Origin: an uncultured Alphaproteobacteria bacterium
GTDB lineage: Bacteria > Pseudomonadota > Alphaproteobacteria > HIMB59 > GCA-002718135
DNA: 64,000 nucleotides
Assembly: GCA_902586695.1 (NCBI GenBank)
Contig: CACIIL010000001.1
Location: 22,196 to 86,195, forward strand
Direction: 5' to 3'
In this document: positions 8,176-32,908 of the stretch, piece by piece
Layout: each line of letters starts with the position of its first letter
Numbering within the stretch: position 1 is the first letter of the stretch
Position numbers and translations under genes: made by a program
Notes under the pieces: model-generated
The model's database searches: none
Seen by the model: the letters and a program-made list of their open reading frames with translations, nothing else
What the model was told of the DNA's origin: nothing

Positions 8176-8189
8176 TTTCACGTGAAAAT
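8174..8189. promoter_or_regulatory. parS-like centromere site (GATTTCACGTGAAAAT)
   Basis: Same 12-bp core TTTCACGTGAAA at the mnmE stop / mnmG start junction, about 190 bp from the first site. Confidence 0.55.
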
Positions 8190-10055
8190 ATGAAAAAAAA
8201 ATATGCAGTTGTGGTAATTGGGGGCGGACATGCTGGTGTTGAGGCTGCTACAGCAGCAGCTAGAATGGGAGTAAGTGTAGCATTAGTAACCCATAAAATT
8301 GATAAAATAGGCGAGATGTCTTGTAACCCAGCAATTGGGGGCCTTGGAAAAGGTCACCTGGTAAGGGAGGTTGACTCACTTGATGGAGTAATGGGAAGGG
8401 CCATAGATAAGGGTGGAATTCAGTTCAGAATGCTTAATGAAAGCAGAGGCGCAGCTGTTAGGGGCCCCAGAGCTCAAGCTGATAGAAAGCTTTATAAGAA
8501 CGCTATTTTTGAAATTGTTAAAAACCAAAAAGGATTGGATTTAATTGAGGGATCGGTTGAGGATCTGGGCATTTTAAACAATCAAATTAATGCCGTAATT
8601 TTAGAGGACGGGAGAAAAATTAACTGTTTGTCAGTGGTTTTAACATCCGGTACTTTTTTAAGGGGGGTTATAAGAATGGGTACTAAAAGCATAGAGGCTG
8701 GTAGGGTCGGAGACAAACCTTCTATTTCTCTTGCAAAAAAAATTGAAAAACTAAAGTTTTCAATAGGTAGATTAAAAACAGGGACCCCACCACGATTACT
8801 TAAAAAATCTATAAATTTCAATAACTTAACAGAACAACTACCTGACAAAGTGCCCACACCCTTCTCTTTTATCAACAACTCTATCCACACCCAGCAAATT
8901 TCATGTTTCATTACCCACACTAATAGCAACACCCACAAAATTATTTCTGACAACATTGGTTTGTCACCAATGTATTCTGGTGTAATTAAATCTATGGGCG
9001 CCAGATATTGTCCATCAATTGAGGACAAAATTACAAAATTTCCCAATAAAAAAAACCACCAAATTTTTCTAGAACCAGAGGGCTTGGATAGCGACTTAAT
9101 TTATCCGAATGGAATATCCTCTTCTTTGCCTGAAAATATTCAAGAGAAATTTGTTAGGTCAATCAAAGGCTTGGAAAAAGCGATCATTACTCAACCAGCA
9201 TATGCAATAGAATACGACTATATTGATCCAAGAGAGTTAACCCACACACTTGAAACGAAAAAAATAAAAAATCTTTTTTTGGCTGGCCAAATAAATGGGA
9301 CAACAGGTTATGAAGAGGCCGCCGCACAGGGTATTATAGCTGGTATTAATGCTGGTTTAAAAAAAACTACAAAAAAAGAGTTTGTTGTTGATAGATCCCA
9401 AGGTTATATTGGTGTTTTAATCGATGATTTAGTTACTAAAGGAACAAAAGAACCATATAGAATGTTCACATCTAGATCAGAATACAGGCTTTTATTAAGA
9501 TCAGACAACGCCGACCAAAGAATTACACCACTAGGAATTGAAATTGGTTGTGTTTCTTTGCTCAGACAAAATATTTTTAATAAAAAAATTAATATGATAA
9601 ACAGGGCGTTTAAACTGGTTAAGAGCCTAAAAGCTTCTCCAAATCAATTACAAAAAAAAGACATAAAAATTAAGTTAGATGGAAAAAAAAGATCTGCTTT
9701 TGATCTTCTTTCATATAAAAACATTAATTTCAAAAAATTAGAAAAAATATGGCCAGAACTTACAGCTTTGAAAACAGATGCTAAAGAGCAGATTGAGATC
9801 GAATCTGTTTATTCCTCTTACCTTGATAGACAAAGGGCCGATATAGAGGATTTTAAAAAAGAAGAAGGAATGAGGATACCTAAAATCATAGACTTCAAAG
9901 ATGTTGGAAGTTTGTCGAATGAAATAGTAGAAAAGCTGACTAAAATTAAACCACCAACCCTTGGAGCAGCTTCTAGAATTTCTGGAGTTACGCCCGCTGC
10001 AATAATTGCAATTATGAGGTTTATCAAAAAACAAAAAAATAATAAAGCGGCATAA
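8190..10055 (+). CDS. mnmG: tRNA uridine 5-carboxymethylaminomethyl modification enzyme MnmG (GidA)
   Basis: [17 protein letters not shown] motif and end-to-end GidA-like sequence. The tracked ORF begins at 8160. ATG 8190 ([13 protein letters not shown]) is the more plausible start. Confidence 0.95.
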
Positions 10056-10056
10056 G

Positions 10057-10674
10057 TTGAACAAAGAAGAAATAATTAACTATTTTAATTTAACCAAAAA
10101 TCAAATTGAAAGCATTGAGATGTTTTTATCTAATATCGTTGAACACAACAAACACACCAACCTAATAGGCAGGTCAACAATTAAGAATCTTTGGAATAGG
10201 CATGTTCTTGATTGCCTGCAGTTATCAAAATATATTAACTCTAAAAAAACCAAAATACTCGATCTTGGGACTGGCCCAGGTCTTCCAGGTGTTTTGTTAT
10301 CAATTGTTGGTTACAAAAACATATTAATGATAGACTCTTCTAGAAAAAAAACCGAATTTGTAAAACTAAACATCAATCAATTGTTTTTATCTGCAAAAAT
10401 AATTAATAAAAGAATCGAAACTGTTGAGGCTAAAAACCATGACATTATTGTTTCAAGAGCGCTCGCCCCACTTAACAAATTATTAACTTATGCACTTATT
10501 CATTCCAATAAAAAAACAACATCGCTTTTTTTAAAAGGAAGAAGTGTTAGTAATGAATTACAGATAGCAAAAAAAAATTTTTTTTTTGATTATGAGGTTT
10601 TTGAAAGTATAAGTGTGGGGGATGGTTGTATTTTGAAAATAAGAAACATTAAAGTTAAAAAAAATAATGACTAA
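10057..10674 (+). CDS. rsmG: 16S rRNA (guanine527-N7)-methyltransferase RsmG (GidB)
   Basis: LDLGTGPGLPG SAM motif, RHVLDC, gidA-gidB-parA-parB synteny. TTG start. Confidence 0.9.
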   Translation: MNKEEIINYFNLTKNQIESIEMFLSNIVEHNKHTNLIGRSTIKNLWNRHVLDCLQLSKYINSKKTKILDLGTGPGLPGVLLSIVGYKNILMIDSSRKKTEFVKLNINQLFLSAKIINKRIETVEAKNHDIIVSRALAPLNKLLTYALIHSNKKTTSLFLKGRSVSNELQIAKKNFFFDYEVFESISVGDGCILKIRNIKVKKNND

Positions 10675-11437
10675 AATAATATCTATTGCAAATCAAAAAG
10701 GAGGTGTTGGAAAAACAACAACATCAATAAACTTAGCAACCTCTTTATCGGCAATTAATAACAAGGTTCTTCTTGTTGATGCTGATCCACAAGGCAACGC
10801 AAGTACTGGAGTCGGCATTCCTTATGAAAATAGAAGCCCAAGCCTATATGATCTAATTGTAAATCGTGAATTTGATGCAAAATCAATTATAAAAACCATT
10901 GTTCCTGATTTAGATATTATTACAGCAAACACAAATCTAGCAGCATCAGAAATTGAATTAGCTAATATTGAAAATAGAGAGTTTGTAATTCTTGAAATTT
11001 TATCTAAAATCAAAAACTATGATTACATTATAATTGATTGTCCGCCAGCACTTGGGCTATTAACAATAAATTCTTTAGTGGCATCAAATTCAGTAATTGT
11101 CCCTCTTCAATCAGAGTTTTTTGCCCTAGAGGGCGTTTCTTCTTTGGTTAGCTCTATTCAGTTAATAAAAGAAAACTTTAACAACAGTCTTAGGGTTGAG
11201 GGAATAGTATTAACAATGGTTGATAAAAGAAACTCATTAAGCGCTTTAGTTGAAAAAGATGTTAGGGATCATTTTGGTGAAATTGTCTACAAAACAACAA
11301 TTCCAAGAAATGTTAAAATATCCGAGGCTCCTAGCCACGGTAAGCCCGCAATATTATATGATGTTAATTGTTCTGGATCTATGGCATATATAGGGCTTGC
11401 CAAGGAGATTATAAACAGACAGGGCTTAATAAAATGA
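10667..11437 (+). CDS. parA: Chromosome partitioning ATPase ParA
   Basis: Deviant Walker A NQKGGVGKTTT, DCPP and ParA-type C-terminus. Confidence 0.95.
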   Translation: MTKIISIANQKGGVGKTTTSINLATSLSAINNKVLLVDADPQGNASTGVGIPYENRSPSLYDLIVNREFDAKSIIKTIVPDLDIITANTNLAASEIELANIENREFVILEILSKIKNYDYIIIDCPPALGLLTINSLVASNSVIVPLQSEFFALEGVSSLVSSIQLIKENFNNSLRVEGIVLTMVDKRNSLSALVEKDVRDHFGEIVYKTTIPRNVKISEAPSHGKPAILYDVNCSGSMAYIGLAKEIINRQGLIK

Positions 11438-12267
11438 ACAAAGAAAACAAAAAACTAGGCATGGGTCTCGGCGCATTATTAAGTCCAAACAAAGACAGCA
11501 GAAACAACATAAACAAGATAGAAATTTCAAAAATTTCACCAAACAAGAAACAACCAAGAAAAAAATTTGATGATAAAGAAATAAAAGAGCTTTCAGGCTC
11601 AATTAAAAACCAAGGTCTAATTCAGCCCTTGGTGGTTAGAAAAATATTAAATGATTCATATGAAATTGTTGCAGGGGAGAGAAGGTGGAGAGCCTGTCAG
11701 ATTGCAGGACTTCATGAAGTAGAATGTGTAATTATGGACATTTCTGAAGAAAAAGTTTTTGAGTTAGCATTAATAGAAAATATTCAAAGAGAAAACCTAA
11801 ATGTTGTTGAAGAGGCTAGTGCTTATAAAAACTTAATACAGATTTATAAATTAAAAAACGAAGAGCTTGCCAAAAAACTTGGTAAAAGCGCTAGCCACAT
11901 TTCAAATCTAATTAGAATTTTGGACTTAGATGAAGAAATTCACCAAATGATCATAGATGGTAAGATTAGCATGGGACATGCCCGCGCGCTAATTGGTGTA
12001 CCTAATGCGGTTGAAAAGGCCAAAGAAATTATAGAAAAAAAACTTAGTGTTAGGGATGTTGAAAAATCAACGGCTGGTTTCAAACAAAAAAGAAAAAAAC
12101 ACTCAGGAAAAGATCCCAACATAGCGGATTTAGAAAAAGAACTTTCTGATAAAATTGGTTTAAAGACTGAGATAGAATTTAATGAAAACGGCTCCAGCGG
12201 ATCATTAAAATTATATTATTCAGACTTAAATCAACTTGATGAAATAATGAAAAGACTCAAGAAGTAA
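11434..12267 (+). CDS. parB: Chromosome partitioning protein ParB
   Basis: GLGALL, QPRK.F, GLIQPLVVR and GERRWRA motifs. Start is set at ATG 11434 (ATGA overlap with the parA stop) rather than the longer tracked ORF at 11368. Confidence 0.95.
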   Translation: MNKENKKLGMGLGALLSPNKDSRNNINKIEISKISPNKKQPRKKFDDKEIKELSGSIKNQGLIQPLVVRKILNDSYEIVAGERRWRACQIAGLHEVECVIMDISEEKVFELALIENIQRENLNVVEEASAYKNLIQIYKLKNEELAKKLGKSASHISNLIRILDLDEEIHQMIIDGKISMGHARALIGVPNAVEKAKEIIEKKLSVRDVEKSTAGFKQKRKKHSGKDPNIADLEKELSDKIGLKTEIEFNENGSSGSLKLYYSDLNQLDEIMKRLKK

Positions 12268-13198
12268 TTATTTTTTTTATATTTAATAAAAACCTTAATC
12301 CAATTACACTAAACAAATCAGAGTTTTTTCTAGTTAATACCTCTGCTCTTAAGATACTCTTATAAAGCATATTTATTTTATATTTGTCTAAAGAGTTAAA
12401 AATTTTTATAAAAACATCTTTTTCATTGAATAAATATTTTGGAAACTTTTCAAGAGCCTCTGGGGTATTGGAAGAGGTGCTTATAATGTTTAGGTGATTT
12501 TTTATGTTATTTATAAGCATATATAAGTCACTTTGAGAGAAAATATTTTTGTTAAAAACTTTTATTAAAATATTATTTTTTTTAAAAATTTGAAAAAAAA
12601 TTTTACTAATATCAATTTTACTTTCGATTGTTATGGCGTTTTCAACATCAGCAATGTTTTTAATGTTTTTGCTATAAAGAGAGAGCATCTCAAGTTTTTT
12701 AACAAATAAAACATATTCATTATCTAAATTTTCTAAGATGTACCAAAAAACATCGCTTGAAAAACCTAAACCATTTGTTTCAATATAGTTTCTAAGAACG
12801 ACCTCTTTACTTTTTCTATTTAGGGGATAGCACTCAAGAACTAAGTTTTTTTCTGATCTTGAAAATTGTGCCTTTAATTTATTTATATTTTTATTGTTCA
12901 GTGAAGAAATTAATACAGTTTCAGGAAGCTCATCTGTGTTTTTTAATTCATTTTTTTTTTCAGAATAATCACCCAATACATATAAAATTTTTTTATCTGA
13001 AAAAAGATCCCCAATCAAACCTTCTTTTTTAAATCCAGATCTTTCTATAAAGTAATTTTTTTTAACAAAATAGTTAATTACGTATTCTGATACAAAGTTG
13101 ATAAAACCTTCATCTAAACCACAAATAAGTATTTTATTATAATTAATGTCTTCATTTTTTAATAAAAAAATCTCTGGTTTAATTTTCATTAAATACAA
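12257..13198 (-). CDS. holA: DNA polymerase III delta subunit (probable)
   Basis: Size and the conserved leuS-lptE-holA arrangement. Sequence is diverged, so the call rests mostly on synteny. Confidence 0.65.
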   Translation of the reverse strand: MYLMKIKPEIFLLKNEDINYNKILICGLDEGFINFVSEYVINYFVKKNYFIERSGFKKEGLIGDLFSDKKILYVLGDYSEKKNELKNTDELPETVLISSLNNKNINKLKAQFSRSEKNLVLECYPLNRKSKEVVLRNYIETNGLGFSSDVFWYILENLDNEYVLFVKKLEMLSLYSKNIKNIADVENAITIESKIDISKIFFQIFKKNNILIKVFNKNIFSQSDLYMLINNIKNHLNIISTSSNTPEALEKFPKYLFNEKDVFIKIFNSLDKYKINMLYKSILRAEVLTRKNSDLFSVIGLRFLLNIKKIITS

Positions 13199-13677
13199 CT
13201 TAGTTTTTTATTATTCGGAAAAGAATTAATGAATGTTTCTATGTTGGTTTTAATACTTGTTTTGTAAAGCCTTTCTAAAGACCTATCTGTTCCAAAATTA
13301 TAACCAGAGGACTTGGGTGTAAAAGAAAACTTTGTTAAAACTGTTTTGTTGAAAACATTACAACTTATATCTTTGTGATATATGTTATAAACGACGCTTA
13401 ACTCATAATCTATTTTTTCTGCAACCTGATTTTTTTTCACTGCAATATTTTCTTTTTTTTCAAAGAAAGTGGTTCGTATAATATACTCCCCTTTTTTGTT
13501 GTTGCCAAAATATGAAAAAAGTTCCTGACTAAAATTTTCGTATTTTTTACCACTTACAAATATAGATGAATTGTTTTTTAGAAAGTTAGTTTTGGGCTTA
13601 TCATCTAAGACAAGCTGTATGTTACTACAGGATGTTGTGATAACAATTAATAAAAATAAGAAGACAGTTTTAATCAT
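13189..13677 (-). CDS. lptE: LPS-assembly lipoprotein LptE (probable)
   Basis: Lipobox-like ITTSC, about 160 aa, located between leuS and holA as in most proteobacteria. Confidence 0.55.
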
Positions 13678-16190
13678 TTAGCAACCAAGTTTACTATTTT
13701 ATTTTTTACATAAATCGTTTTCACAATTTCTTTGTTTTCTGTATATTTTTTAATTTTAGGTTCAGCCATGGCTTTTTTAATAATATCTTCTTTTTTCTCT
13801 TCTACATCAACATTAATCAAAGATCTTGTTTTGCCATTTATTTGAATTGGCATTTTAAAACTTTTATTCTCAAAATCTTTTCTTGTTTTGGGCCAGTCAG
13901 CCATTGCGCAAAGCCCCTTACCACCAAGATTATACCAAATTTCCTCACTAATATGGGGAATAAACGGGTGGATAATAATGGATAGGTTTTTTATCACAGC
14001 GCTTAACTCTTCTTCATCTATGTATTTTTTTGATACAAGCATTGAAAGTAAATTTACATATTCATAAATTTTTGCAACAGATTTATTAAAATGAAAACTT
14101 TCTATGTTTGAAGAAATTTCATTAATAATTTTATCAAAATCATCCATATAAGATTTTTTACGCAGACCACTGCTTGATTTATATTCATTTGATTTTTCAC
14201 TAAGCTCCCATATTTTATTTATAAACTTATAAGAAGATGCCACCCCTGTTTCTGTCCACTCTAGGTCTCTTTCAGGCGGGCTATCTGATAACATAAACCA
14301 CCGCGCTGTGTCTGCCCCGTATACATTTATAATTTGAGTTGGATCAATTACATTTTTTTTTGATTTACTCATTTTTTCAGTACTTCCAGAAGACACAATG
14401 TTTCCACTTAAATCAAAAAGTTTATTATTTTTAATAACAACTTCATTCGGCTCAATCCATTCGTTATTTTTATTTTTATATGTTTTATGAGTAACCATTC
14501 CCTGAGTAAACAATCCTTTAAATGGTTCGTCTAGTTTTATATATTTTAGGTCTCTTAAAGCTTTTGTAAAAAATCGTGAATAAAGCAAATGTAAAATAGC
14601 GTGTTCAATTCCACCAATATATTGATCAACTGGAAGCCAGTATTTAATATCTTCAAAGTCTAGTGGATCGTCTAGCCTAGGATTACAAAATCTTAAAAAG
14701 TACCAAGAGGATTCAAAAAAAGTATCAAAAGTGTCTGTTTCTCTTACTGCCTTCATTCCAGTTTCTGGACAAATAGTTGTTTTCCAATCTTCTAAATCTT
14801 TTAGTGAATTAAAATGCCCGTTTTTACTTTCTTTTTTTGGCAACATTACAGGAAGATCTTTTTTTTGGACAGGTAAAACCTTCCCATCTTCTCTATATAA
14901 AATTGGTATAGGGCAACCCCAGTATCTTTGTCTAGAAACACCCCAATCTCTAAGTTTGTAATTTATTTTTCTACTTCCTAAATTCTTTTTCTCTAAATAT
15001 TCTAGTATTTCAACTTTTGCACTTTCTATATCCAGGCCATTTAAAAAACCTGAGTTAACCATTGTTCCTTCTCCAGTAAAGGCCTCATTGATAATTTCTT
15101 TAAGATCATTATTGGGTTTAACCACAGTTATTACCTCTAAATTAAATTTATTAGCAAAATCAAGATCCCTTTGGTCATGAGCTGGGCACCCAAATATTGC
15201 TCCGAGCCCATAATCCATTAAAATAAAATTAGCGATATAAACAGGTAGCTCTTTATTTGTTAAGGGGTGGCTAACTTTTATATTGGTATCAAAGCCTAAT
15301 TTTTCTTTATCAGGATTTGATTTTTTGCAGTCATCTATGAAGTTTTGTATTTTTTTATCTTTATTAGATACAACTTTACACAAAGGATGTTGGGGAGAAA
15401 TTGCTATAAAGGTAGCCCCATAAATTGTGTCTGGCCTAGTTGTAAAAACTTTAATTTTGTTTTCTTTAAATTTCTCTGTTTTAATTTCAAAACTTATTTC
15501 TGCACCAATCGATTTTCCAATCCAGTTTTTTTGCATTATCTTAACTTTTTCTGGCCACTCATTTAAATTATCTAAATCTTTCAATAGCTCTTCAGAATAA
15601 TTGCTTGTTTTTAAAAACCATTGTGACAAGAATTTTTTTTCCACTAAGGCACCCGATCTCCAACCACGCCCATCAATTACTTGTTCATTAGCTAACACAG
15701 TTTTGTCTACAGGGTCCCAATTAACTTCAGATTCTTTTTTATAAGCTAGCCCACTTTTAAACATTTCTATAAAAAACTCTTGTTCGTGTTTATAGTATTC
15801 TGGATGACAGGTAGCTAATTCTTTTTTCCAATCAAATGAAAAGCCCATGCTTTTTAGTTGTCCTTTCATTGTACCAATATTTTTGTATGTCCACTCTTCT
15901 GGACTTTTTTTCTCAACCATTGCTGCATTTTCAGCAGGCAAACCAAATGCATCCCAGCCCATGGGGTGCATTACATTGAATCCTTTCATTTTTTTATATC
16001 TTGCAACAACATCTCCCAAAGTATAGTTTCTAACATGACCCATATGAATCTTTCCAGAGGGGTATGGAAACATTTCTAAGACATAATATTTTTTTTTATC
16101 TTTGTTTTTTCTGGAACCAAATATATCTTTATTTATCCATTCTTTTTGCCATTTTTTTTCAGCAACTTTATGATTGTATCTTTCTGACAC
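13674..16190 (-). CDS. leuS: Leucine--tRNA ligase
   Basis: HMGH (HIGH-class) and KMSKS motifs. Full-length LeuRS-like sequence. Confidence 0.97.
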
Positions 16191-16899: not shown

Positions 16900-17973
16900 T
16901 TAAAATGACATAGTAGCGCCAACGTACCAAGCAGATCCACCAGAAGTATCTGATACACCCTCATCTTGTACATCAACAGTAGTATAGCCTAATATAGCAG
17001 ATACACCTGAAGCAACAGCATAAGTTATGCTTGCTCCAACTGAATCATATGCATCGTCCGTAGTACCAGCTGTACCCATTGTGCTAGAGTCTTTTGCTTC
17101 ACCAGAAGTTGCTCCAATAGCCATTGTGATGTCACCACTTACGTATTTAACACCAGCTTTTAGAACACTACCATCAACCTGAACACTTGAAGTGTTAGCA
17201 GTATTAGTAGTTGCAGTACCTTGGTGATCAAAAGTATCACCATCACCGTAACCAACACCAACTGTTAAGTCTCCAGTTACCGCTGAAACACCAATGTTGA
17301 AACCATTTCTGTCAGCAGTAGGTGCAGTTCCAGAATATCTAGTTTCTGAAGATGCAATACCACCACCAATAGTAACTGTTGAGTCACCAGCAGTAGTTAC
17401 ATAAGTTGCACCAACACCCCATGAAGAGTCCATAGCTTGAGTACCAGCTGCGGCAGCTCCACTACTTCCACTGTAAGATGCAGAAACTTTAAGACCATCA
17501 GCCATAAAGTCAGCAGCAGAATGCCACTCAACACCTAATGCAGTAGCACCAGCACCAAAAGATGTACCAGTAGGCGCACCATTAGATGTAGTTACAGCAA
17601 TACCTTGCTCACCTGAAGCACCAGGAACTGAAACAGCATGAGTACCTGCAGCGTTACCAGCATTTAAAAGTTCTAAAGCAGAACCGTCAGAGAAAGTAAG
17701 TTTAATAGCGTTGTCATCATCAGGAGCACTTCCACCTTCATTTGTAAGCATAAAGCTTGAAGATACAGTAGTACCACCATCAGTAGTTTCACTTAGAGAA
17801 ACTGAAAAGTTTGATAAGCTTTTATTATTATTAGTATCTGAACCAGATTCTGGGCTTTCAAACTCTTGACCAATTTTTAAGCTACCACCCATTGTTGCTG
17901 TTACCGCTTCAGCGACTGAAGCAGCTCCAAGCGTAGAAACAAGAGCAGAAGCCATCAATAGTTCTTTTTTCAT
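16900..17973 (-). CDS. Outer-membrane porin-like beta-barrel protein (Gly/Ala/Ser/Thr-rich)
   Basis: Signal peptide ending AEA, alternating-pattern G/S/T/A-rich sequence, C-terminal ...GATMSF (terminal Phe). AAGGAG lies 5 nt before ATG 17973, while the tracked ORF starts at GTG 17979. Codon usage is visibly GC-richer than in neighbouring genes. Confidence 0.6.
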   Translation of the reverse strand: MKKELLMASALVSTLGAASVAEAVTATMGGSLKIGQEFESPESGSDTNNNKSLSNFSVSLSETTDGGTTVSSSFMLTNEGGSAPDDDNAIKLTFSDGSALELLNAGNAAGTHAVSVPGASGEQGIAVTTSNGAPTGTSFGAGATALGVEWHSAADFMADGLKVSASYSGSSGAAAAGTQAMDSSWGVGATYVTTAGDSTVTIGGGIASSETRYSGTAPTADRNGFNIGVSAVTGDLTVGVGYGDGDTFDHQGTATTNTANTSSVQVDGSVLKAGVKYVSGDITMAIGATSGEAKDSSTMGTAGTTDDAYDSVGASITYAVASGVSAILGYTTVDVQDEGVSDTSGGSAWYVGATMSF

Positions 17974-17989
17974 AATCACTCCTTTTGAG

Positions 17990-18029
17990 TTAATGAATAT
18001 TCATTAATTAATGAAGGTTTATCCTTCAT
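17990..18029. promoter_or_regulatory. Array of alternating TTAATGAA/TTCATTAA half-sites plus a hairpin upstream of the porin-like gene
   Basis: TTAATGAA (17990-97), TTCATTAA (18000-07), TTAATGAA (18008-15), then ATGAAGG-TTTAT-CCTTCAT (18011-29). These form overlapping 18-bp and 16-bp perfect palindromes. Confidence 0.4.
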
Positions 18030-24840: not shown

Positions 24841-25387
24841 ATGTTTTTAAAACTATACCCTCTGTAGAAGAAAAAATATGTATTTTTTTTTTATTTTCAA
24901 TCATAAATTTAATGAAATTATCAGTAGCAATAGTTATTGTTACAGTATTAATAAGCGGATGAAAGTTTAAGAATTCACTATCATGAAGTTTTTTTTCTAA
25001 ATAAAAACTAACCACATTATTTGTATCATTTAAAAGAGCAAAAGGTGATACAGATCCGGGCTTGATTCCTAAAATATTAAAAAGATATTGTTCTTTTGCA
25101 AATGAAATATTACCAAAGTTTAATGACTTAGAAATATTTTTTAAGTTAATTTCTTCGAACTCTTCACATGACAATAAAAAAAAATTATTTTTTTTATTTT
25201 TTAAGAATAAATTTTTACTATGAGAGCCTTTGATTTTTCCTCTTAATTTATTAGACTCTTCAACTGTGAAAAGTGGCTCATGTTCATGTATTTCAAATTC
25301 ATATTTTTTCTCCTTTAAAATATCAATAAACTTTTTTAAACTTAACATTGTTTGAATATTTTTTATTATACTTTCACAATATATCAT
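24833..25387 (-). CDS. YbaK/ProX-type aminoacyl-tRNA editing domain protein
   Basis: KNLFLKNKK...FLL, GSVSPF and FHPL patterns typical of prolyl-tRNA editing (ProX-like) proteins. Confidence 0.65.
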   Translation of the reverse strand: MIYCESIIKNIQTMLSLKKFIDILKEKKYEFEIHEHEPLFTVEESNKLRGKIKGSHSKNLFLKNKKNNFFLLSCEEFEEINLKNISKSLNFGNISFAKEQYLFNILGIKPGSVSPFALLNDTNNVVSFYLEKKLHDSEFLNFHPLINTVTITIATDNFIKFMIENKKKIHIFSSTEGIVLKTYE

Positions 25388-25406
25388 GGTACTACAAAAA
25401 TCTATT

Positions 25407-25481
25407 GCGGGCGTAGCTCAGGGGTAGAGCGCAACCTTGCCAAGGTTGAAGTCGAGGGTTCGAATCCCTTCGCCCGCTCCA
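25407..25481 (+). tRNA. tRNA-Gly (anticodon GCC), CCA encoded
   Basis: Cloverleaf read by eye: acceptor GCGGGCG/CGCCCGC, D arm GCTC/GAGC, anticodon arm CAACC-TTGCCAA-GGTTG, T arm GAGGG-TTCGAAT-CCCTT, then TCCA. Confidence 0.95.
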
Positions 25482-25554
25482 AATTCTAACTCCACCTTTA
25501 TTTTATAAAAAGTTCTTCAATATACCCTCAATATAGTCTTAAATATTTTTTATT

Positions 25555-26301
25555 ATGAAAAATTTAATTGCATTTTTTATTCTGTTATCAGCAATAAATG
25601 TAAATGCTAATGATCTTTCATCTATACAAGAAGATTTAGTTTTAGAAAAAAATTTAGTAGTAATTATTTGGAGTCATGGACAAACAAGACCACAAAAATC
25701 AGAAAAATGTTCTAGTCGATTTAACAAAATACCAAAAACTCTAAAATATTTAGAAAAAGAAATTAATGCACATTTTGTTTTTATGTGCTCTAAATCTACA
25801 GACAATAATAACTCTCCAGGATCATACATATACAAAAGAGTGAAACAATTGAAAAAACTCCTTACTGAAATAAATGAAATAGGCGTTAATCCTAATAATA
25901 TTTTTATCAGTGGGTGGTCTGCCGGAGGATGGACTGCATTACATATGTTTAAAGAAAATGAAAAATTATTTAACAGTGCAATTGTTTTCGCCCCTGCATT
26001 TGCTGGACCAAGACATGAAACAAAAAAATATCCGTGGTGGAGAGAGGAGGCAAGACCTGCGCATATAAAGGAAATTACAAAAGCAAAGCTTATAGATGCT
26101 TTAGTTTTTGCTTACGAGGATGATGATTTTAATCGCCCTGAGGAATTAAAATTTTTAACAGAACGTTATCCAAATAATGTAAATTTAATCGGATATAATT
26201 GTAAAAAAGGTCATGTAACACATGCTAAAGATTGTAAATCTAGAGAAACAGAAATTCTGATTTTAAATTATATTACTAATCAGATAAATTCCAAAAATTA
26301 G
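25555..26301 (+). CDS. Secreted alpha/beta-hydrolase (esterase-like)
   Basis: Signal peptide. Nucleophile elbow GWSAG (G-x-S-x-G) with later acidic and His candidates. Substrate unknown. Confidence 0.55.
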   Translation: MKNLIAFFILLSAINVNANDLSSIQEDLVLEKNLVVIIWSHGQTRPQKSEKCSSRFNKIPKTLKYLEKEINAHFVFMCSKSTDNNNSPGSYIYKRVKQLKKLLTEINEIGVNPNNIFISGWSAGGWTALHMFKENEKLFNSAIVFAPAFAGPRHETKKYPWWREEARPAHIKEITKAKLIDALVFAYEDDDFNRPEELKFLTERYPNNVNLIGYNCKKGHVTHAKDCKSRETEILILNYITNQINSKN

Positions 26302-26381
26302 TATCTATAATTAACAAAATCATTGTTGAAGTCTGTTAAAAAATTACTATTTTATTAAAGGGAAAGTAGCAAAAGCTCAAA

Positions 26382-27359
26382 ATGGTTAAATCATTATCAA
26401 ACTTAAAAACAATTTATATAAAAGACTATAAAAAATTTGATAAAATAGATAATACTTCTTTAAGCAGAGAGCTAAAAATAGAACTATCAAAAGAAAATAA
26501 AAAAATTCCCTCTAAATTTAAATACGATTTAAATGGAAGTAAATATTTTGAAAAAATTACTAAACTAAAAGAATATTACGCTACAAGAACTGAAAAAAAA
26601 ATTTTAAAGCAAATATCAAAGGAAATGAAAAACATTTTTGAAAATAATTTAACATTTGTTGAGTTCGGAAGTGGGGCGACTGATAAAATTAGTATTTTAA
26701 TTAATGATCAAGTAAAATTTTGTATGCCCTTAGATATTTCATATGATTTTTTGCTAAAATCATCAATTAAGTTGGCAAAATCTTTCCCCAATTTAATTAT
26801 TATGCCCGCTTATGGTGATTATATAAATAAATTCAAAGTACCAAAACAAATTTCAAAAAAAAGAATTGGTTTTTTTTTAGGATCATCCATTGGTAATTTT
26901 TATGAGAAAAAAGAAAAAATTTTTCTCCAAAATGCAAGAGCAACCTTAGGTAAAAATGGTTGTTTGTTTGTGGGGGTAGACTTAATTAAAAATAAAAAAA
27001 TTATCGAGAAAGCTTATAATGACTCCAAAGGCACTACTGCAAAATTTAATTTTAACTTATTGAGCAGAATTAATAAAGTTTTTAAAACAAAATTAGAAAA
27101 AAAAGATTTTAAATATTTTTCTCATTTTAATAAAAAAAACAATTCTGTTGAAAGTTTTTTAATTAGTAAAAAAGATCAAAAATTCATTATTGATAATAAA
27201 AAATTTTTTATTAAAAAAAATGAGAAAATACAAACTGAAATATCAAAAAAATTTACAATAAATAGTTTTAAAATATTGGCAAACTCAGCTGGGTGGAAAG
27301 TAAAAAAATATTGGATAGATAAAAATAAATATTATTCAATTTTTTTACTAGAAAACTAG
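26382..27359 (+). CDS. EgtD-like SAM-dependent amino-acid N-methyltransferase (Methyltransf_33 family)
   Basis: PSKFKYD..GS.YFEKIT.L.EYYATRTE..IL, FVEFGSGATDK, GSSIGNF and TEISKKFT match the signature blocks of EgtD (KWFYD, EYYPTRTE, ELGSG, TIGN, E.S.KF). Confidence 0.8.
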   Translation: MVKSLSNLKTIYIKDYKKFDKIDNTSLSRELKIELSKENKKIPSKFKYDLNGSKYFEKITKLKEYYATRTEKKILKQISKEMKNIFENNLTFVEFGSGATDKISILINDQVKFCMPLDISYDFLLKSSIKLAKSFPNLIIMPAYGDYINKFKVPKQISKKRIGFFLGSSIGNFYEKKEKIFLQNARATLGKNGCLFVGVDLIKNKKIIEKAYNDSKGTTAKFNFNLLSRINKVFKTKLEKKDFKYFSHFNKKNNSVESFLISKKDQKFIIDNKKFFIKKNEKIQTEISKKFTINSFKILANSAGWKVKKYWIDKNKYYSIFLLEN

Positions 27360-27377
27360 CTCCATTATTACCTATTT

Positions 27378-27398
27378 ACATTTCCAAGGTTGAGGTCG
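27378..27398 (+). pseudogene. Decayed tRNA-Gly fragment (anticodon arm to T-stem), possible relic att-type repeat
   Basis: ACATTTCCAAGGTTGAGGTCG matches tRNA-Gly positions 25434-25454 (ACCTTGCCAAGGTTGAAGTCG) at 18/21, with a 10/10 run and a 15/16 core. The anticodon position reads TCC. Confidence 0.55.
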
Positions 27399-27429
27399 TA
27401 TTCAAAAAAACTATTAATTTAACTTTAAA

Positions 27430-28359
27430 TTAACAACAAAAATTATCTTCAAACACCTTCATTATTTCGAAAGTATAATCTTGTTTTAGGTGTCTATTAT
27501 CTTCTAAAAAAGGATCTACAAAATATTCTTTAGTAATTTCATAAGACGGAAAATAGTACAAATCTTCTTTATTATTATATTTTGAAATTACATTATCTAA
27601 AGCAACCCTTAAAATAGATTTAGATATTGAGTTTGCTGTTATGCAAGATTGAGGCCTAAAAGTTGCCATCAAAGGAATTGGGGAAAGAGTATATATAATT
27701 GATGCATTAGGTTTATATTTTTTTATTACAGAGTAAATACTATCTAAATTATTAGTATTTTCTTCAACTGTTGAGACTCTAAAACCATGTTTATTTTCAT
27801 CAAATTGACTGGCGGGAATTGCTTTCCAAAAAACCTGGTTATTTAATTTATTATACCATACTTCTGCAAGGCCAACAGTTATGATAAAAATATCAATTTT
27901 GTTTAATAAATTTAAAGTTTGCTCTCTTATTTCAAAGTCATTTCTTTCTTCTTTTTGAGATGTATAATACCATGTATTTTTTTCAATATCTTTATTTTCA
28001 AAAGCCCAAAGTAATTGTTCTAAAACAGTAAAGGTGTTTGCCATACCCTCTCCATAACGAATGATATGAGTATCGGTTGACATTTTTTTATTGAAAATAG
28101 AATAATTTTTATTTGCAAGATAAGAAGATACTTCTGCAGCAAAACAACTACCAAATGCAAGAATATTTTGTTTTTTTGTAATAAATGGTTTTTTTGGTTT
28201 AAATCCTTCTAATATATATTTATCAAAAAAATTCTTATCTTTAAAATGTTTTTTAGAAGGAATAAAATTACAATTTTTTCCTCTAAACCAATGCCCTCCA
28301 AATTTTTGAGAGTCACTTTTTGTTTTATATATTAATGGGTCTAACCTATACCTTTTCAT
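27430..28359 (-). CDS. GSCFA-domain protein
   Basis: Contains the eponymous motif (AFGSCFAAEV). Size is consistent with the GSCFA family. Function unknown. Confidence 0.75.
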   Translation of the reverse strand: MKRYRLDPLIYKTKSDSQKFGGHWFRGKNCNFIPSKKHFKDKNFFDKYILEGFKPKKPFITKKQNILAFGSCFAAEVSSYLANKNYSIFNKKMSTDTHIIRYGEGMANTFTVLEQLLWAFENKDIEKNTWYYTSQKEERNDFEIREQTLNLLNKIDIFIITVGLAEVWYNKLNNQVFWKAIPASQFDENKHGFRVSTVEENTNNLDSIYSVIKKYKPNASIIYTLSPIPLMATFRPQSCITANSISKSILRVALDNVISKYNNKEDLYYFPSYEITKEYFVDPFLEDNRHLKQDYTFEIMKVFEDNFCC

Positions 28360-28461
28360 TTTTATATCTATTTAATATACACAATTAAAATTAATATAAA
28401 TAAAAAAATAGTTATTATTGAGTTTTGGTTTGTTTAGTTTTTAAAAAATGAATTTATTATT

Positions 28462-29115
28462 TTAGTTTTTTATAAGGTCGCCAAGCAGACTATAATCATT
28501 AGTATATATTTTTTTTACTTTTGTTATTTGATATGCATTTAACTCTAAAACAAATTCCTTGCCCCCTGTTTGGATTTTAGGAAATTTTCTATCTTGACCA
28601 AAAAAATTATTTATTTTTTGTTCAAATGTTTTAATATTTGAAGTAATGCCAATTATATTAAAATAACTCAAGTCATTACCCAGCCAATAATTTTGAGGAA
28701 GAAAATGCTTGTTTTCAAAAAGGTTGTTTTCAAGCTTTTCAATAACCATATCAACTGTATGATTATAAAATTCCTTATCTTTATGAAATAAAACTCTATT
28801 TTTGTATGCTGATAAAAATCTTTTTAAAGGATCTCTGACAATACATGCTCTATAGTCTACTTGTAATTTTGTAAATCTATTCTTGCTTTTAAACCAATTT
28901 GTTAAATTTGTTTTTCCTTCAAAACTATCTTGTAATTTTTTAGTTTGTTTAAATCTAGGTATATTATCCTCTATAAAAAAAAATTTATCTAATAAATCTA
29001 AATGACTAGCAAAAAAAAGTTTAGCAGAGGAATTTGCATTTTTTTTTACAGGATAAAATACTAATTTTTTATTTGTTTTTTTATTAAAAAAGACCGGGTA
29101 TACTGGGTTTTTCAT
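28462..29115 (-). CDS. Sulfotransferase family 2-like protein
   Basis: Candidate PAPS-binding blocks: YPVKKNANSS (5'-PSB-like) and IVRDPLKRFLSAYKNRV (3'-PB-like, RDP..R..SAY). Confidence 0.6.
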   Translation of the reverse strand: MKNPVYPVFFNKKTNKKLVFYPVKKNANSSAKLFFASHLDLLDKFFFIEDNIPRFKQTKKLQDSFEGKTNLTNWFKSKNRFTKLQVDYRACIVRDPLKRFLSAYKNRVLFHKDKEFYNHTVDMVIEKLENNLFENKHFLPQNYWLGNDLSYFNIIGITSNIKTFEQKINNFFGQDRKFPKIQTGGKEFVLELNAYQITKVKKIYTNDYSLLGDLIKN

Positions 29116-29185
29116 TTTTTTTATTCTATACTAATTGACTGCTTTAATCTATCTAACTTGAATTTTTATAAATAATTTCAAAGTG

Positions 29186-30241
29186 TTATTTATGTAAATT
29201 TAAATTCTTTGCTGACCAGTAAAACCTATCATTTCTTACAAGGGGATGAAAGCTATTTCTACCAACAGCAGTATTGAAATTATTAAAATTAAAAGAAGTT
29301 AGTATTTTAATAAAATTAATTCTTTTATTAATTTGGTTTGAAAATTCTTTATCTAAGAAAATTGTTTTAAAATCATTATTCGTTAGAAAATAGTTTTCAT
29401 AAATACACTGTGTTTGCCATGAAAAACCTTCTATAAATAAGTTGTTGTTATTTAAATAATACTTTGGTTCACTTATTTTTTCATTAAGCTTTATAAGATA
29501 AATATTGTTATCATATTGAAAAATATTTCTTTCTTTACTAAAATGAACTAAGATTTTTTTTTCGATTTGTTTATTAACTATATTTAAAAGAACAACAAAT
29601 TCAGTTATAAGCCCTTTACAAATATTTTCAAAATTATACTCTAATTCTGCCTCTCCCTTTACAATTCTTTTTCTTATTTTTTCTATTTCATTAAAATTTG
29701 TAAAATTTTTTTCTTCTATTTCAGCACCAAGTAATTTTAAGCAGTTGATTGTATGTATTATAGAGTGTCCCGTCAGCAATAATGCTTTATGACTTCTTTT
29801 TTTCTCAATAATTAGATTTATTAATGTTGTTATTCTATTGTGAATTTGTTCAAATGAATTTAATATGTTTTGGTATGGATTTAAATTTTTAGATTCAAAA
29901 CTTATTTTACCTGTTAATATTTTTAATTCTGAAACTGGATTGTATGTCATGTATGGCAGCATTTTTATTGATGACAAAGGATATATATGGGGTAAATGAT
30001 GGAAGTATATCTCTTTGTTGGGTAAATCTTTTATTGCTTCTTTAAATAAATATAAAAATTGAGAAGACAAAACAAAATTGTCTTTGAAAACAAATATTAA
30101 ATCTATGTCTGAAACACCTGGACTTTTTATATGACCATTGTGAATAATGTTTTCAGGCACAAGGTTGCTCGGTAGTTTTTTTGAAAATTCTAAAACATAA
30201 TCAATAGTTCTATTATAATCTTCTATATTTAAAGCTTTCAT
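29186..30241 (-). CDS. Divergent nucleotidyltransferase-fold protein with helical C-terminal region
   Basis: NGHIKSPGVSDIDLIFVF resembles the Pol-beta NTase G[SG]-x(9-13)-D-x-D motif, but with GH in place of GS. 1-nt TAATG overlap with the upstream NTase gene. Confidence 0.4.
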   Translation of the reverse strand: MKALNIEDYNRTIDYVLEFSKKLPSNLVPENIIHNGHIKSPGVSDIDLIFVFKDNFVLSSQFLYLFKEAIKDLPNKEIYFHHLPHIYPLSSIKMLPYMTYNPVSELKILTGKISFESKNLNPYQNILNSFEQIHNRITTLINLIIEKKRSHKALLLTGHSIIHTINCLKLLGAEIEEKNFTNFNEIEKIRKRIVKGEAELEYNFENICKGLITEFVVLLNIVNKQIEKKILVHFSKERNIFQYDNNIYLIKLNEKISEPKYYLNNNNLFIEGFSWQTQCIYENYFLTNNDFKTIFLDKEFSNQINKRINFIKILTSFNFNNFNTAVGRNSFHPLVRNDRFYWSAKNLNLHK

Positions 30242-31305
30242 TAAATTAAGTATTTTTCTGAAATTTCATTTAAAATTTCATTTTTTTGAATATTTACACT
30301 CATATTTATTGAGTCAACCATGATATTTTTTATAAATTCCTCACTCACACCAATATTTGACATTTGAAGCTCTGCCCAATCACTTCTAATTAATGATGCA
30401 CTATTAAATAAATCAATTTCTTTTTTAGATTTATATTTATGTATCTTATTTTCAAAAATATTTTTTTTATCAAGATAGGTTCCAAATATAATTTCAAACT
30501 CTAAAATAATTAACATAAAGTAACTGCTTATTAATTGCTTCAAAAAAAATAAATTATTTATTTTGTCTTGGCTTTGTAAATCAATCATAATTCTTAATAT
30601 GTTGAAAAAACTTTCAATCTTTAAATCTAAATCTTCCCTTATGCCTTTTATTGTTATTTCATGATTTTTAGAAGACGAGCCTTTTTCAAGTGCGGAAATA
30701 GGCATAAAGCTTTCAGGGTAACAATCCAAGTCAGACTCAAGGTTAATGAAAACTTTATGATGAGAAACAGGGTCGAAAAATGCTATTTTTTTATTTAATG
30801 CCTCTATTTGAAAATATGCTTCTCTTAGTTCTTTTTCACTATTAATTAATTTATTTTTAATAAATATACTTACATCAACATCACTAAACCTTGTACTTTG
30901 CCCATCAGATTGACTTCCATGTAATATTATTGAAAAATAATCAAAATGGTTTTCTTCACACATTGACAATATCTCACTCCCAATATTTGTTATGGAGTTA
31001 CTTTCTAGGCCTTTTAATGATTTATCTAATTTAGTTTTTTTAAATAAACTTGAGAAATCAAAGTTTAGGTATTCAATTACGTTTGAATTATCACTTCCTA
31101 AAAAAGAGTAAAAAGAATTAACAGGATCTATGTTTATTTTTAAATTATTGTTTAGAAGCAATGACAAAGATTTTTTTCTCATCCTTTGGGCTATGCTGTA
31201 TTTTCTACAATTGTTTATAAACCTCGGATCAAATAAAAGCTTAATATTTTCATCTATTTTAATAGATTTTGAATTTAATGTTGAATATATTTCGCTAAAA
31301 TTCAT
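30241..31305 (-). CDS. Nucleotidyltransferase (Pol-beta superfamily) domain protein
   Basis: Canonical ILHGSQSDGQSTRFSDVDVSIFI (GS...DxD) at residues about 128-148, flanked by an approximately 125-aa N-terminal region and a helical C-terminal region with no recognised motifs. Confidence 0.6.
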   Translation of the reverse strand: MNFSEIYSTLNSKSIKIDENIKLLFDPRFINNCRKYSIAQRMRKKSLSLLLNNNLKINIDPVNSFYSFLGSDNSNVIEYLNFDFSSLFKKTKLDKSLKGLESNSITNIGSEILSMCEENHFDYFSIILHGSQSDGQSTRFSDVDVSIFIKNKLINSEKELREAYFQIEALNKKIAFFDPVSHHKVFINLESDLDCYPESFMPISALEKGSSSKNHEITIKGIREDLDLKIESFFNILRIMIDLQSQDKINNLFFLKQLISSYFMLIILEFEIIFGTYLDKKNIFENKIHKYKSKKEIDLFNSASLIRSDWAELQMSNIGVSEEFIKNIMVDSINMSVNIQKNEILNEISEKYLI

Positions 31306-31306
31306 C

Positions 31307-32116
31307 TTATTTTAGGATTTCTTTTATTTCATGAACAACAGTTTCTATTGAAATAAGCCGCATACACTCTTTGCAGTGCTGACAAATATTTTTGCTTCCA
31401 CAAGGTGAGTTAGGCAAATCAACATAAATATTTTTATGGAAATCATAACCTGTAATTTCAGGACTTATATGCCCACCAAAAATAACAACTGCCTTGCACG
31501 AAGTGGCCGCTGCTGCATGATGCATTCCTCCTTCAGTTCCAATAAAGAGATCACATTTTTCGAGAATTGCAGCACTATTTCTAAAATTAATACCATGAAT
31601 GTTAATACATCCTTCAATCGGCTTAAGGTCACCGTATGTTATATGTAAAAATTCATATTTATCTATAAGTTTTGAAACAACCTCTTTCCATTTTTCTATT
31701 CCCCAGTCTCTATTTTGATAACCTCTTCTTATTTTTACATAGGGCTCTATAAAAATTAGTTTTTTGTTGCCAATTTTATTTCTTATTTTTTGTATTACAG
31801 ATTTAGAAAAATCCTTTTCACTTTTTGAAAAAAAAATCTCACCCTTTTTTGCTTTATAATTTTTATTCCATGTATAAAAATCTTTATGTCTACTTTTGTC
31901 GTAAATTCTATATGGTCTATTACCTTCATAATTTTTAATCCAAACAATTTTTTTATATTTTGAAATTTCATTTATATCAATAATGTAAGGATTATTATTA
32001 AAGACCTCATTCCAATAAGATAGCGTCCCATCACCAACTACAAACTTTGCATCACGAATATTTTTTCTAATTTCTTTAATTTCACCTGTTGCCATTAAGG
32101 CGTCGCCTAAACCCAT
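31307..32116 (-). CDS. Glycosyltransferase family 9 (heptosyltransferase-like), short form
   Basis: GLGDALMATG at the very N-terminus and GTEGGMHHAAAATSCKAVVIFGG near the C-terminus (GT9 donor-binding block). 269 aa is shorter than typical GT9 enzymes. Confidence 0.7.
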   Translation of the reverse strand: MGLGDALMATGEIKEIRKNIRDAKFVVGDGTLSYWNEVFNNNPYIIDINEISKYKKIVWIKNYEGNRPYRIYDKSRHKDFYTWNKNYKAKKGEIFFSKSEKDFSKSVIQKIRNKIGNKKLIFIEPYVKIRRGYQNRDWGIEKWKEVVSKLIDKYEFLHITYGDLKPIEGCINIHGINFRNSAAILEKCDLFIGTEGGMHHAAAATSCKAVVIFGGHISPEITGYDFHKNIYVDLPNSPCGSKNICQHCKECMRLISIETVVHEIKEILK

Positions 32117-32117
32117 C

Positions 32118-32705
32118 TTAGAATCTTTCTAAGCTAACATTGAAACTAATTACTATTCTTTTATTGTTTGAATTATTAGGATTTACTGAATGCTCTAAAT
32201 AACTAGGAAACAAAACTAATAAACCCTCTTCAGGTTGAACTGAATTTACTGAAGCATTTAATATATTTGGAGATTTAGCAACTGGATGTCTATAAACTGG
32301 TGCAGGTCGAGGATCATAAAAAACAATATCACCACAATTTTTTTCTGCAGTAACGTAATACGCAGCACTTAAGTCACTATTCCCATGATGATGTCTTTGG
32401 TTAAATGCACCTTTTTCATTTATGATTGCCCACATGCTAGTAATTTTAACTTCTTGTTTTTCTAAATCCCAATTCATATCTTTTAAAGCTTGGTTAATAT
32501 TTAACTTTATTGCTTGAGTAAAATTTTTTGGAGCATCTTCGTTCAGATTAAAGTCATGGGAATGCCAACCATTAAAATTACTTTTTTTAATACCTTCTGA
32601 ATCTTTTTTTTGCAAATCCAAAATATAAGATAAAATTTCTTTATTAATTATCTGATGATTAGATATTTTTGATGCCCATACAGGAGTAGAAAAAAATAAA
32701 TGCAT
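32118..32705 (-). CDS. TIGR02466-type putative 2OG-Fe(II) oxygenase
   Basis: SMWAII...G.FN.RHHHGNSDLSAAYYV and LLVLFPSYLEHSV.PN....RIVISFN match the family signature as I recall it. Confidence 0.7.
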   Translation of the reverse strand: MHLFFSTPVWASKISNHQIINKEILSYILDLQKKDSEGIKKSNFNGWHSHDFNLNEDAPKNFTQAIKLNINQALKDMNWDLEKQEVKITSMWAIINEKGAFNQRHHHGNSDLSAAYYVTAEKNCGDIVFYDPRPAPVYRHPVAKSPNILNASVNSVQPEEGLLVLFPSYLEHSVNPNNSNNKRIVISFNVSLERF

Positions 32706-32908
32706 ATTTTTTCTTTAATATATTTTTTATAAAAATAATATAAAAATTTATAAATGAATTATAACTTGTTTTTTTTTAGGTATTTTTTTGTTAACTCTAA
32801 ATTTTTTTTTACCCTTTTATCATAATTTTCAAAATTTTTTCTTCCACTTGCTATATCTGGGAATAATTTTAATAATTTTTTAATATAATTAATCTTCATA
32901 AATTTAAT

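Follow-up and report, generated by a model that had tools for sequence, protein, structure and literature searches.

The gene for tRNA-Gly(GCC) in a 64-kb stretch of SAR11 DNA (contig CACIIL010000001.1; the whole stretch of 64,000 nucleotides (nt) that was analyzed is called the window, and positions refer to it) is followed downstream by a short fragment that is, judging from the alignments described below, a real, decayed partial copy of this neighboring tRNA-Gly gene. Between the intact gene and the fragment lie a gene for a secreted alpha/beta-hydrolase and egtD, a gene for a predicted methyltransferase. We consider it very probable that the fragment is an attachment-site (att) scar of the attR type, left by an element that carried egtD and integrated into tRNA-Gly(GCC) by site-specific recombination with a tyrosine recombinase, that this element belonged to a kind represented by integrase-primase elements of ~7 kb, and that the hydrolase gene arrived later in a cassette of its own. 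The same tRNA gene is a multiply used integration hotspot across SAR11.

The fragment, ACATTTCCAAGGTTGAGGTCG (27378-27398), is an 18/21 match, on the same strand, to tRNA positions 28-48 (window 25434-25454). An earlier reading based on the sequence only had reported this pair, and ARAGORN, Rfam and alignment agreed with it on both the intact gene and the match. Two details of that reading needed correction: the core, given as 15/16, is 14/15 (CCAAGGTTGA[A/G]GTCG), with no more than 10 nt in a row matching exactly, and the spacer described as AT-only (27360-27429) is AT-rich, yet holds about nine further C residues. The judgment that such a match is unlikely by chance in 64 kb was borne out. 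The fragment was the only site in the window outside the tRNA gene where any tRNA 21-mer, on either strand, scored at least 17/21, and a match of 18/21 with any tRNA 21-mer on either strand arose in 2 of 300 order-2 Markov simulations of the window (~0.007, without any correction for the fragment being near the tRNA, in its orientation and intergenic). When Rfam/Infernal was run permissively (E<=10) over 25300-27600, no tRNA-like match appeared at the fragment, as expected for a 21-nt remnant, and the tRNA pseudogene detection that had been proposed was uninformative here. As to the suggested decay of the 3' part of the fragment, the continuation of TTCAAAAAAA versus TTCGAATCCC requires a 2-nt gap and is not assessable by itself; in an alignment with one metagenome contig (L072), the window shows a deletion of ~47 columns after position 48 (35 in L072 and the tRNA, and 12 more in the flank).

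This contig was one of 13 metagenome contigs (L062-L074) recovered with the EgtD protein as query, for which the sequence 3' of the egtD stop codon was aligned. In L072 (89% nt identity), CTTTATTAGCATCTATT is followed by AACCTTGCCAAGGTTGAAGTCGAGGGTTCGAATCCCTTCGCCCGCTCCA, a perfect 49-nt copy of tRNA positions 27-75. In the window, the same position, 17-20 nt past the stop codon of egtD, reads CTCCATTATTACCTATTTAC and then ATTTCCAAGGTTGAGGTCG. The junction CT(C/T/G)(C/T/T)(A/A/T)(T/T/A)TA..(C/T)CTATT precedes the tRNA-derived segment in the window, L071, L072 and L066. In L066 the tRNA copy after this junction breaks off at position 41, and L071, with 99.2% identity to the window across 6.1 kb, carries the same decayed fragment with two further point differences. 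Because L072 holds an intact copy at the homologous position, the window fragment represents a true att-type partial copy of the tRNA in eroded form. In L069, a decayed T-arm-class copy lies 3' of egtD, and unrelated sequence was found there in L062, L064, L067 and L073. In addition, a GC-rich diverged sequence downstream of egtD in L063 (2850-2915), CCAAACCCATGAAGGTTGAAGCTGAGGTTGTGAGCCCTCTCATCACCCCA, was ~60% identical to the 3' half of tRNA-Gly and may be an att copy from another host's tRNA.

The DNA bracketed by the tRNA gene and the fragment had been taken for a two-gene insert; the bracketing stood, and the single insert did not. In a Global Ocean Sampling (GOS) contig (L062) the tRNA-Gly gene is followed by 41 nt and then by egtD (93% nt identity), and the segment corresponding to window 25512-26370, that is, the hydrolase gene, is absent. 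The hydrolase cassette was found in a distant SAR11 genome (L038:3393-4176) at 93.4% nt identity over 787 nt, next to core proteins that are only ~59% identical to those of the window, and is followed there by a decayed T-loop-class copy of the last 24 nt of tRNA-Gly. A single inserted unit of hydrolase and egtD was rejected on this basis, as L062 has egtD alone at the tRNA and L038 the hydrolase alone, and the bracketed DNA hence comprises two independently distributed single-gene cassettes. The alignment with relatives that had been suggested as a search for an empty site thus found tRNA-Gly directly followed by egtD in L062, and in the closest genome (L001, 93% identity in the YbaK protein) it found a sulfotransferase gene on the other strand directly after the tRNA. 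Occupancy of the site is variable, with L062 devoid of the hydrolase and L001, L002 and L003 carrying other content. Within the 13 metagenome contigs, egtD was present at 85-93% identity in 12, with differing flanks; in L065 identity was only 40%.

The junction between the two cassettes holds a second, more eroded tRNA-Gly scar. Based on local alignment against the tRNA, tested with shuffled sequences, tRNA-like residues occurred only in the two spacers flanking egtD, and the second scar scored above all 200 shuffles. At the same distance upstream of egtD as this scar, L068, L070 and L074 carry GCAACCTTGCCAAGGTTGAAGTC (tRNA positions ~25-47), followed by a 21-nt internal deletion. Upstream of egtD in L063 there is a full-length tRNA copy decayed by GC-to-AT changes, and in L062 the whole tRNA. 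The homology with L038 stops at 26327, and the homology with L068, L070 and L074 begins at 26325.

The hydrolase is a secreted alpha/beta-hydrolase with a signal peptide, and its Pfam alpha/beta-hydrolase matches were weak. The methyltransferase matched Pfam Methyltransf_33 at 6.7e-85 and NCBIfam TIGR03438 at 299.8 bits. As the latter score passes the equivalog cutoff of 290.9, the gene is predicted to encode an EgtD-type L-histidine N-alpha-methyltransferase (hercynine synthesis). No EgtB/EgtC-type partner was found near egtD in the window; histidine betaine may be the product of a stand-alone EgtD that moves horizontally in SAR11.

Next to the evidence from the two cassettes stands that from other SAR11 genomes. 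Scanning genomes with the YbaK protein as query yielded 61 loci from SAR11 single-cell and metagenome-assembled genomes (MAGs), 58 of which include tRNA-Gly(GCC), with a sequence 100% identical across nearly all of them. Well-kept partial copies, defined by no more than two mismatches in the last 23 nt and a position within 5.5 kb downstream of the tRNA, were present in 36 of the 58 loci (at least one each). All of these copies were on the strand of the tRNA, with up to four per locus, and their spacing was mostly 0.5-1.6 kb (maximum ~4.6 kb); they separate mostly single-gene cassettes. There were 58 such copies: 44 started at tRNA positions 24-31, 12 at position 45 or later, and two were near-full. 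Integrases that target tRNA genes are known to use anticodon-loop and T-loop sublocations, to which the two classes of start correspond. The flanks just before and after the copies belong to recurrent families that pair in fixed ways, and whole units recur as well, for example a 0.5-kb unit that encodes an 86-amino-acid (aa) protein. Proteins encoded in the islands were diverse (116 clusters among 234 open reading frames (ORFs)), and the cargo consisted mostly of sulfo-, methyl- and glycosyltransferases, epimerases and oxygenases. In a PHROGs scan of the 116 clusters, the mobility functions among the families shown were integrase and primase only, and no phage structural or packaging genes (capsid, tail, terminase) were among these families.

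Another recurrent unit, of 1.32 kb and bounded by partial tRNA-Gly copies, carries tRNA-Ser(TGA) on the opposite strand and is always the most distal in its array (L005:1902-3245, L036:2225-3617, L040:3687-5059, L046:1383-2755 and L048:3689-5059). In L048, the one of these loci in which ORFs were read, it also has a 275-aa sulfotransferase-like ORF. The hotspot occupies two different core contexts, since in most SAR11 loci ~4.4 kb of conserved genes lie between ybaK and tRNA-Gly and in the lineage of the window (L001-L003) the two abut directly.

A shared leader was found on the downstream side of the att copies. Window 25482-25540 has counterparts at 80-91% identity behind the full tRNA or its partial copies in L002, L007, L016, L031, L050, L006 (four times), L057 and others. 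This family-0 leader occurs behind the tRNA or one of its partial copies more than a dozen times, each time with an ORF at ~75 nt that begins with a similar signal peptide (MKILITIF...). The resulting module of att core, ~75-nt leader and signal peptide precedes different small secreted proteins of 94-294 aa, at L006:1300-4860 (four tandem units), L057:1864 and 4753, L050:3523, L048:3613-3740 and window 25482-25610. The window hydrolase shares only the leader and signal peptide of that module.

Integrases occur at the same tRNA gene. Full-length tyrosine integrases, which belong to PF00589, lie directly after the tRNA in L019, L011 and L052, and integrase stubs that retain the N-terminal part (37-120 aa) immediately follow an att copy in L043, L059, L039, L012, L004, L035 and L051. 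The L019 integrase had 134 homologue clusters at E<=1e-20 in a database of genome and metagenome proteins, and those named by source were integrases or marine alphaproteobacterial MAG proteins. Free elements with a matching attP were found as well. On L164, an integrase 82% identical to that of L019 has an attP (positions 25-75) 80-100 nt upstream of it and a DUF5906 gene downstream. A 7.34-kb unit present as head-to-tail repeats on L168-L173 (e.g., L168:464-7128 and 7803-14473) encodes an integrase, four small proteins, a 686-aa P4-type primase-helicase and a helix-turn-helix (HTH) protein, and its attP comprises tRNA positions 4-75. In L019, L164 and L168 alike, the integrase is accompanied by a DUF5906/P4-type primase-helicase, and the attP sites of the free elements are identical to the 3' 51-72 nt of tRNA-Gly(GCC). 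The 7.34-kb elements are low in GC and abundant in marine metagenomes; the abundance is apparent from their integrase, which was found in identical form on at least 63 contigs. The second unit on L168 abuts host-like genes (response regulator). Two islets of 2-2.5 kb, in L004 and L036, have no integrase, and both of their att arms match the 7.34-kb element, at 94% and 90%. The islet in L004 (2630-5109) holds a DEDD 3'-5' exonuclease-like gene (201 aa) and a gene for a 175-aa protein of unknown function.

The partial tRNA duplication by integration that the sequence-only reading had proposed is borne out by the intact copy in L072, the variable occupancy, the hotspot and the attP-bearing elements. 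The attP search that it had suggested came out differently in the two kinds of data, with a matching attP on the metagenomic integrase-primase elements and no exact attP in IMG/VR. In that database, the 49-mer retrieved only a high-GC contig with a full tRNA. The 23-mer of the 3' end retrieved 75 contigs, of which the low-GC ones carried either tRNA-Gly(UCC) genes of phages or attP-like sites in which the variable loop differs (L076, L119, L138), and the 21-mer of the anticodon arm retrieved 15 phage-borne full tRNAs with a GC content of at least 0.41. No pelagiphage attP for the tRNA-Gly(GCC) site was found in these scans. In a collection of deposited phages the best match to the element integrase had 36% identity (Ralstonia phages), and no described phage or satellite relative was found there.

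We infer the order of events in the window, and movement of its cassettes by such integrases rather than by homologous recombination, as follows. A small element bearing egtD would have integrated into tRNA-Gly(GCC) by a crossover in the region of the anticodon arm, supplying a replacement 3' part that would have kept the tRNA gene intact and leaving a distal attR copy, the present 27378-27398 in eroded form. The mobility genes (integrase and replication genes) would subsequently have been lost from the locus. These genes would have been those of the ~7-kb elements with integrase and DUF5906 primase-helicase that appear intact, truncated or internally deleted at the same tRNA elsewhere in SAR11. 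A later event would have inserted the independently circulating hydrolase cassette on the tRNA-proximal side, before egtD, and its arrival would have cut the older scar in front of egtD to GTTGAAGTC. AT-biased decay and deletions would then have eroded both scars.

Several observations weigh against this sequence of events. A tblastn search with six mobility queries (five integrases of the family found in tRNA-Gly islands and the L019 primase-helicase) was blank across the window and L062-L074, in agreement with the earlier statement that no integrase remains, and no integrase, excisionase or primase remnant was seen in the window or the 13 egtD contigs. Without such a remnant there is no direct link of the two cassettes to a particular integrase. 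The egtD stop codon and the scar are separated by so few nucleotides (17-20) that there is no room for a separate arm. No free element with egtD or the hydrolase gene was found, though attP-bearing elements for the hotspot exist (L164, L168-L173), no circular junction of either cassette was seen, and the exact attP is missing from IMG/VR, as described above. Finally, the left boundary of the homology between the hydrolase cassette and L038 (25541), 14 nt before the ATG, does not fall at an att copy, which homologous or illegitimate recombination explains more easily than clean site-specific excision.

This boundary leads to an alternative in which RecA-type homologous recombination, through the repeated att copies and the leader and signal-peptide module, swapped the cassettes without an integrase; the scar itself would still stem from an ancient integration. 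The 3' part of the tRNA, the family-0 arm and the signal-peptide codons together form ~150-190 nt of common sequence in front of many different genes, and breakpoints fall within scars (26325-26327 in the window; tRNA position 41 in L066), a pattern that recombination in short shared segments would produce. The flexible islands of SAR11 are moreover generally ascribed to homologous recombination, with canonical mobile elements rare (PMC11796062). On the other hand, the att copies are flanked on either side by recurrent, family-specific arms identical to those of integrase-bearing free elements, which is a signature of site-specific integration, and the integrases and stubs are placed exactly at the tRNA. 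The two mechanisms are not exclusive, and we regard swapping without an integrase as possible, if rather doubtful. A present function of the anticodon-arm remnant, whether it serves the convergent genes around it as a terminator or RNA element or acts as a secondary att site, was also considered, given that several independent scars keep positions ~25-48 and lose the T-arm and acceptor (window, L066, L068, L070, L074, L003:6439). The stem CAACC/GGTTG is broken in the window copy, however, the spacer showed no significant RNA fold, doing no better than shuffled sequences (z 0.83), and four of the egtD contigs have unrelated sequence in its place; retention for a function is accordingly improbable in our view.

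Still less credible are the two remaining explanations of the fragment. If it were a chance resemblance in an AT-rich spacer, with no historical tie to the tRNA, its length of only 21 nt with 3 mismatches, its selection after the whole 64-kb window had been read and the silence of Rfam at the site would all be natural. The simulations speak against this, as does the presence of a second scar in the only other spacer of the bracket, and the perfect 49-nt copy of L072, homologous by position after the same junction, together with L066 effectively refutes it. The sequence-only reading had also raised a displaced tRNA-Gly(UCC) gene as the source, as the fragment reads TCC at the anticodon position. 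Both L072, a copy of GCC tRNA positions 27-75, and L066 read GCC at this position, so that the T is a point change, and the ATATCC of L071 shows that point change is ongoing. The phage or other tRNA-Gly(UCC) genes recovered from IMG/VR have a different anticodon stem (AGCCTTCCAAGCT), and no relative with a full tRNA-Gly(UCC) gene at the position of the fragment was seen. We regard a UCC origin as refuted.

An extension of the integration reading can be put forward tentatively. The tRNA-Gly(GCC) gene could conceivably act as an integron-like capture platform, served in trans by the integrases of separate 7-kb integrase-primase satellites. Non-autonomous, mostly single-gene cassettes that keep the att arms, and often the leader and signal-peptide module, might on this speculative extension be inserted, excised and shuffled in trans, and the scars that consist of the anticodon arm only (positions ~25-48) might, just as tentatively, be products of crossovers with non-cognate sites. 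Like integrons, the islands have co-oriented, promoter-proximal, mostly single-gene cassettes, a repeated recombination site and a recombinase outside the cassettes. They differ from integrons in lacking IntI, attI and attC, in having 3' segments of a tRNA as repeats, and in that the recombinases are phage-type tyrosine integrases on separate elements. If true, such a platform would let a streamlined genome that is poor in integrases exchange secreted and surface-modifying genes by a site-specific route.

The coordinates of the features are collected in Table 1. The window has a low GC content (~27%), and tRNA-Gly(GCC) was its sole tRNA (ARAGORN) and the sole Rfam match at gathering level. Upstream of the tRNA lie core genes (ftsK, a ubiH-like gene, LonN, a thioredoxin-TPR gene and the gene for a YbaK-type editing protein), the last of which ends 20 nt before the tRNA. 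On the far side of the fragment, the widely conserved 2-oxoglutarate (2OG)-Fe(II) oxygenase gene of the distal block adjoins purH, beyond which are a heparinase-like gene and rsmB. Many relatives have the 2OG oxygenase and purH in common with the window, and these two only; the remaining genes of the block are sporadic. No tRNA-like residues were found in the distal-block spacers (27430-32908) by the shuffle-tested local alignment. A sub-threshold Rfam match to the HPnc0260 antisense RNA at 25443-25583 on the minus strand (46.8 bits, gathering score 59, E 0.0013) is unlikely to be a feature of its own, as its well-aligned part is the reverse complement of the 3' half of the tRNA. A local GC peak at 17001-18000 (0.42 versus a background of ~0.27) contained no Rfam family at gathering score.

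Table 1. Coordinates of the tRNA-Gly(GCC) island features in the window.
Feature	Position	Strand	Basis or remark
tRNA-Gly(GCC), intact	25407-25481	+	ARAGORN; Rfam RF00005, 70.9 bits; attB (attL after integration), island anchor
Element-side arm/leader after the att core, "P-prime family 0"	25482-25540	+	Runs on into the hydrolase signal-peptide codons
Hydrolase cassette, CDS 25555-26301, 248 aa, GWSAGG serine motif, tight flanks	25541-26327	+	L038 homology
Second, more eroded tRNA-Gly scar, GTTGAAGTC, tRNA positions 39-47	26325-26333	+	Cassette junction
egtD cassette: conserved 48-nt leader and CDS 26382-27359, 325 aa	26334-27359	+	Pfam Methyltransf_33, NCBIfam TIGR03438
Element-side junction, egtD stop to att scar	27360-27377	+	Common to the window, L071, L072 and L066
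Decayed attR-type partial tRNA-Gly(GCC) copy, tRNA positions 28-48	27378-27398	+	18/21 match; homologous copies in L072, L066 and L071
Distal accessory block: GSCFA, sulfotransferase, unknown protein of 351 aa, nucleotidyltransferase, GT9, 2OG-Fe(II) oxygenase	27430-32705	-	Pfam

By comparison, the locus resembles known cases of island building by tycheposons and phage satellites. The tycheposon islands of Prochlorococcus have a tRNA seed, partial tRNA copies between successive insertions, and rare intact elements (Hackl et al., bioRxiv 10.1101/2020.12.28.424599). The likeness extends to an intact tRNA at the start of the island, partial copies in the same orientation between successive insertions, and heterogeneity that is highest next to the tRNA. 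In both, intact elements with tyrosine recombinase and primase/helicase are rare, integrase fragments are common, and most of the content is cargo without mobility genes. The host here, in contrast, is SAR11, the target tRNA-Gly(GCC) is not among the seven Prochlorococcus island tRNAs, and the units are strikingly small, being mostly single genes of 0.5-1.6 kb, many of them with the leader and signal-peptide module.

Among marine phage satellites, the virion-encapsidated integrative mobile elements (VEIMEs) include satellite-like concatemeric elements linked to Pelagibacter (Eppley et al. 2022, PMC9618062), and Pelagibacter regions near tRNAs with tyrosine recombinases, primases and helicases have been described from particle-associated DNA (Biller et al. 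2025, PMC11876622). As read from the contigs, the elements on L168-L173 are like these in their ~7.3-kb units (with head-to-tail repeats on L168-L171), their integrase, their DUF5906/P4-type primase-helicase, their small HTH protein, their low GC content and their abundance. The main text of PMC9618062 does not mention tRNA att sites. For SAR11 itself, the main text of Molina-Pardines et al. (2025, PMC11796062) lists seven islands that abut a tRNA, of which four hold a partial tRNA repeat of >90% identity, read as cassette insertion, with integrases almost absent; arrays of up to four copies, arm families and a link to attP-bearing elements are not described in that main text. Temperate pelagiphages have tyrosine integrases and attB sites in SAR11 tRNA genes, with core sequences of tens of bases (Zhao et al., 10.1101/410191; Du et al. 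2021, PMC8477408). Their targets, as given in the text of the two papers, are tRNA-Cys, Leu, Arg, Asn and Met, with the site mostly in the 5' end or middle of the gene, and tRNA-Gly is not named in that text. A tyrosine integrase and an att site in a SAR11 tRNA are thus shared with these phages, the difference being that the tRNA-Gly islands examined contain no phage structural genes. We did not find the tRNA-Gly(GCC) target, the cassette-sized units, the leader module or the integrase-less derivatives with intact arms described in the main texts of these studies.

The concept is hence not new, and the locus is a clean, well-supported example rather than a surprise. For the window, the annotation gains two scars, two horizontally acquired cassettes (hydrolase and EgtD-type) and an island boundary. 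No bacterial group in the ocean is more abundant than SAR11, which is usually portrayed as nearly devoid of mobile elements, with its flexible genes ascribed mainly to homologous recombination. The present locus offers a view at base-pair resolution of how one SAR11 tRNA gene gathers site-specific insertions, as in the tycheposon islands of Prochlorococcus, and links these insertions to small, abundant integrase-primase elements whose attP matches.

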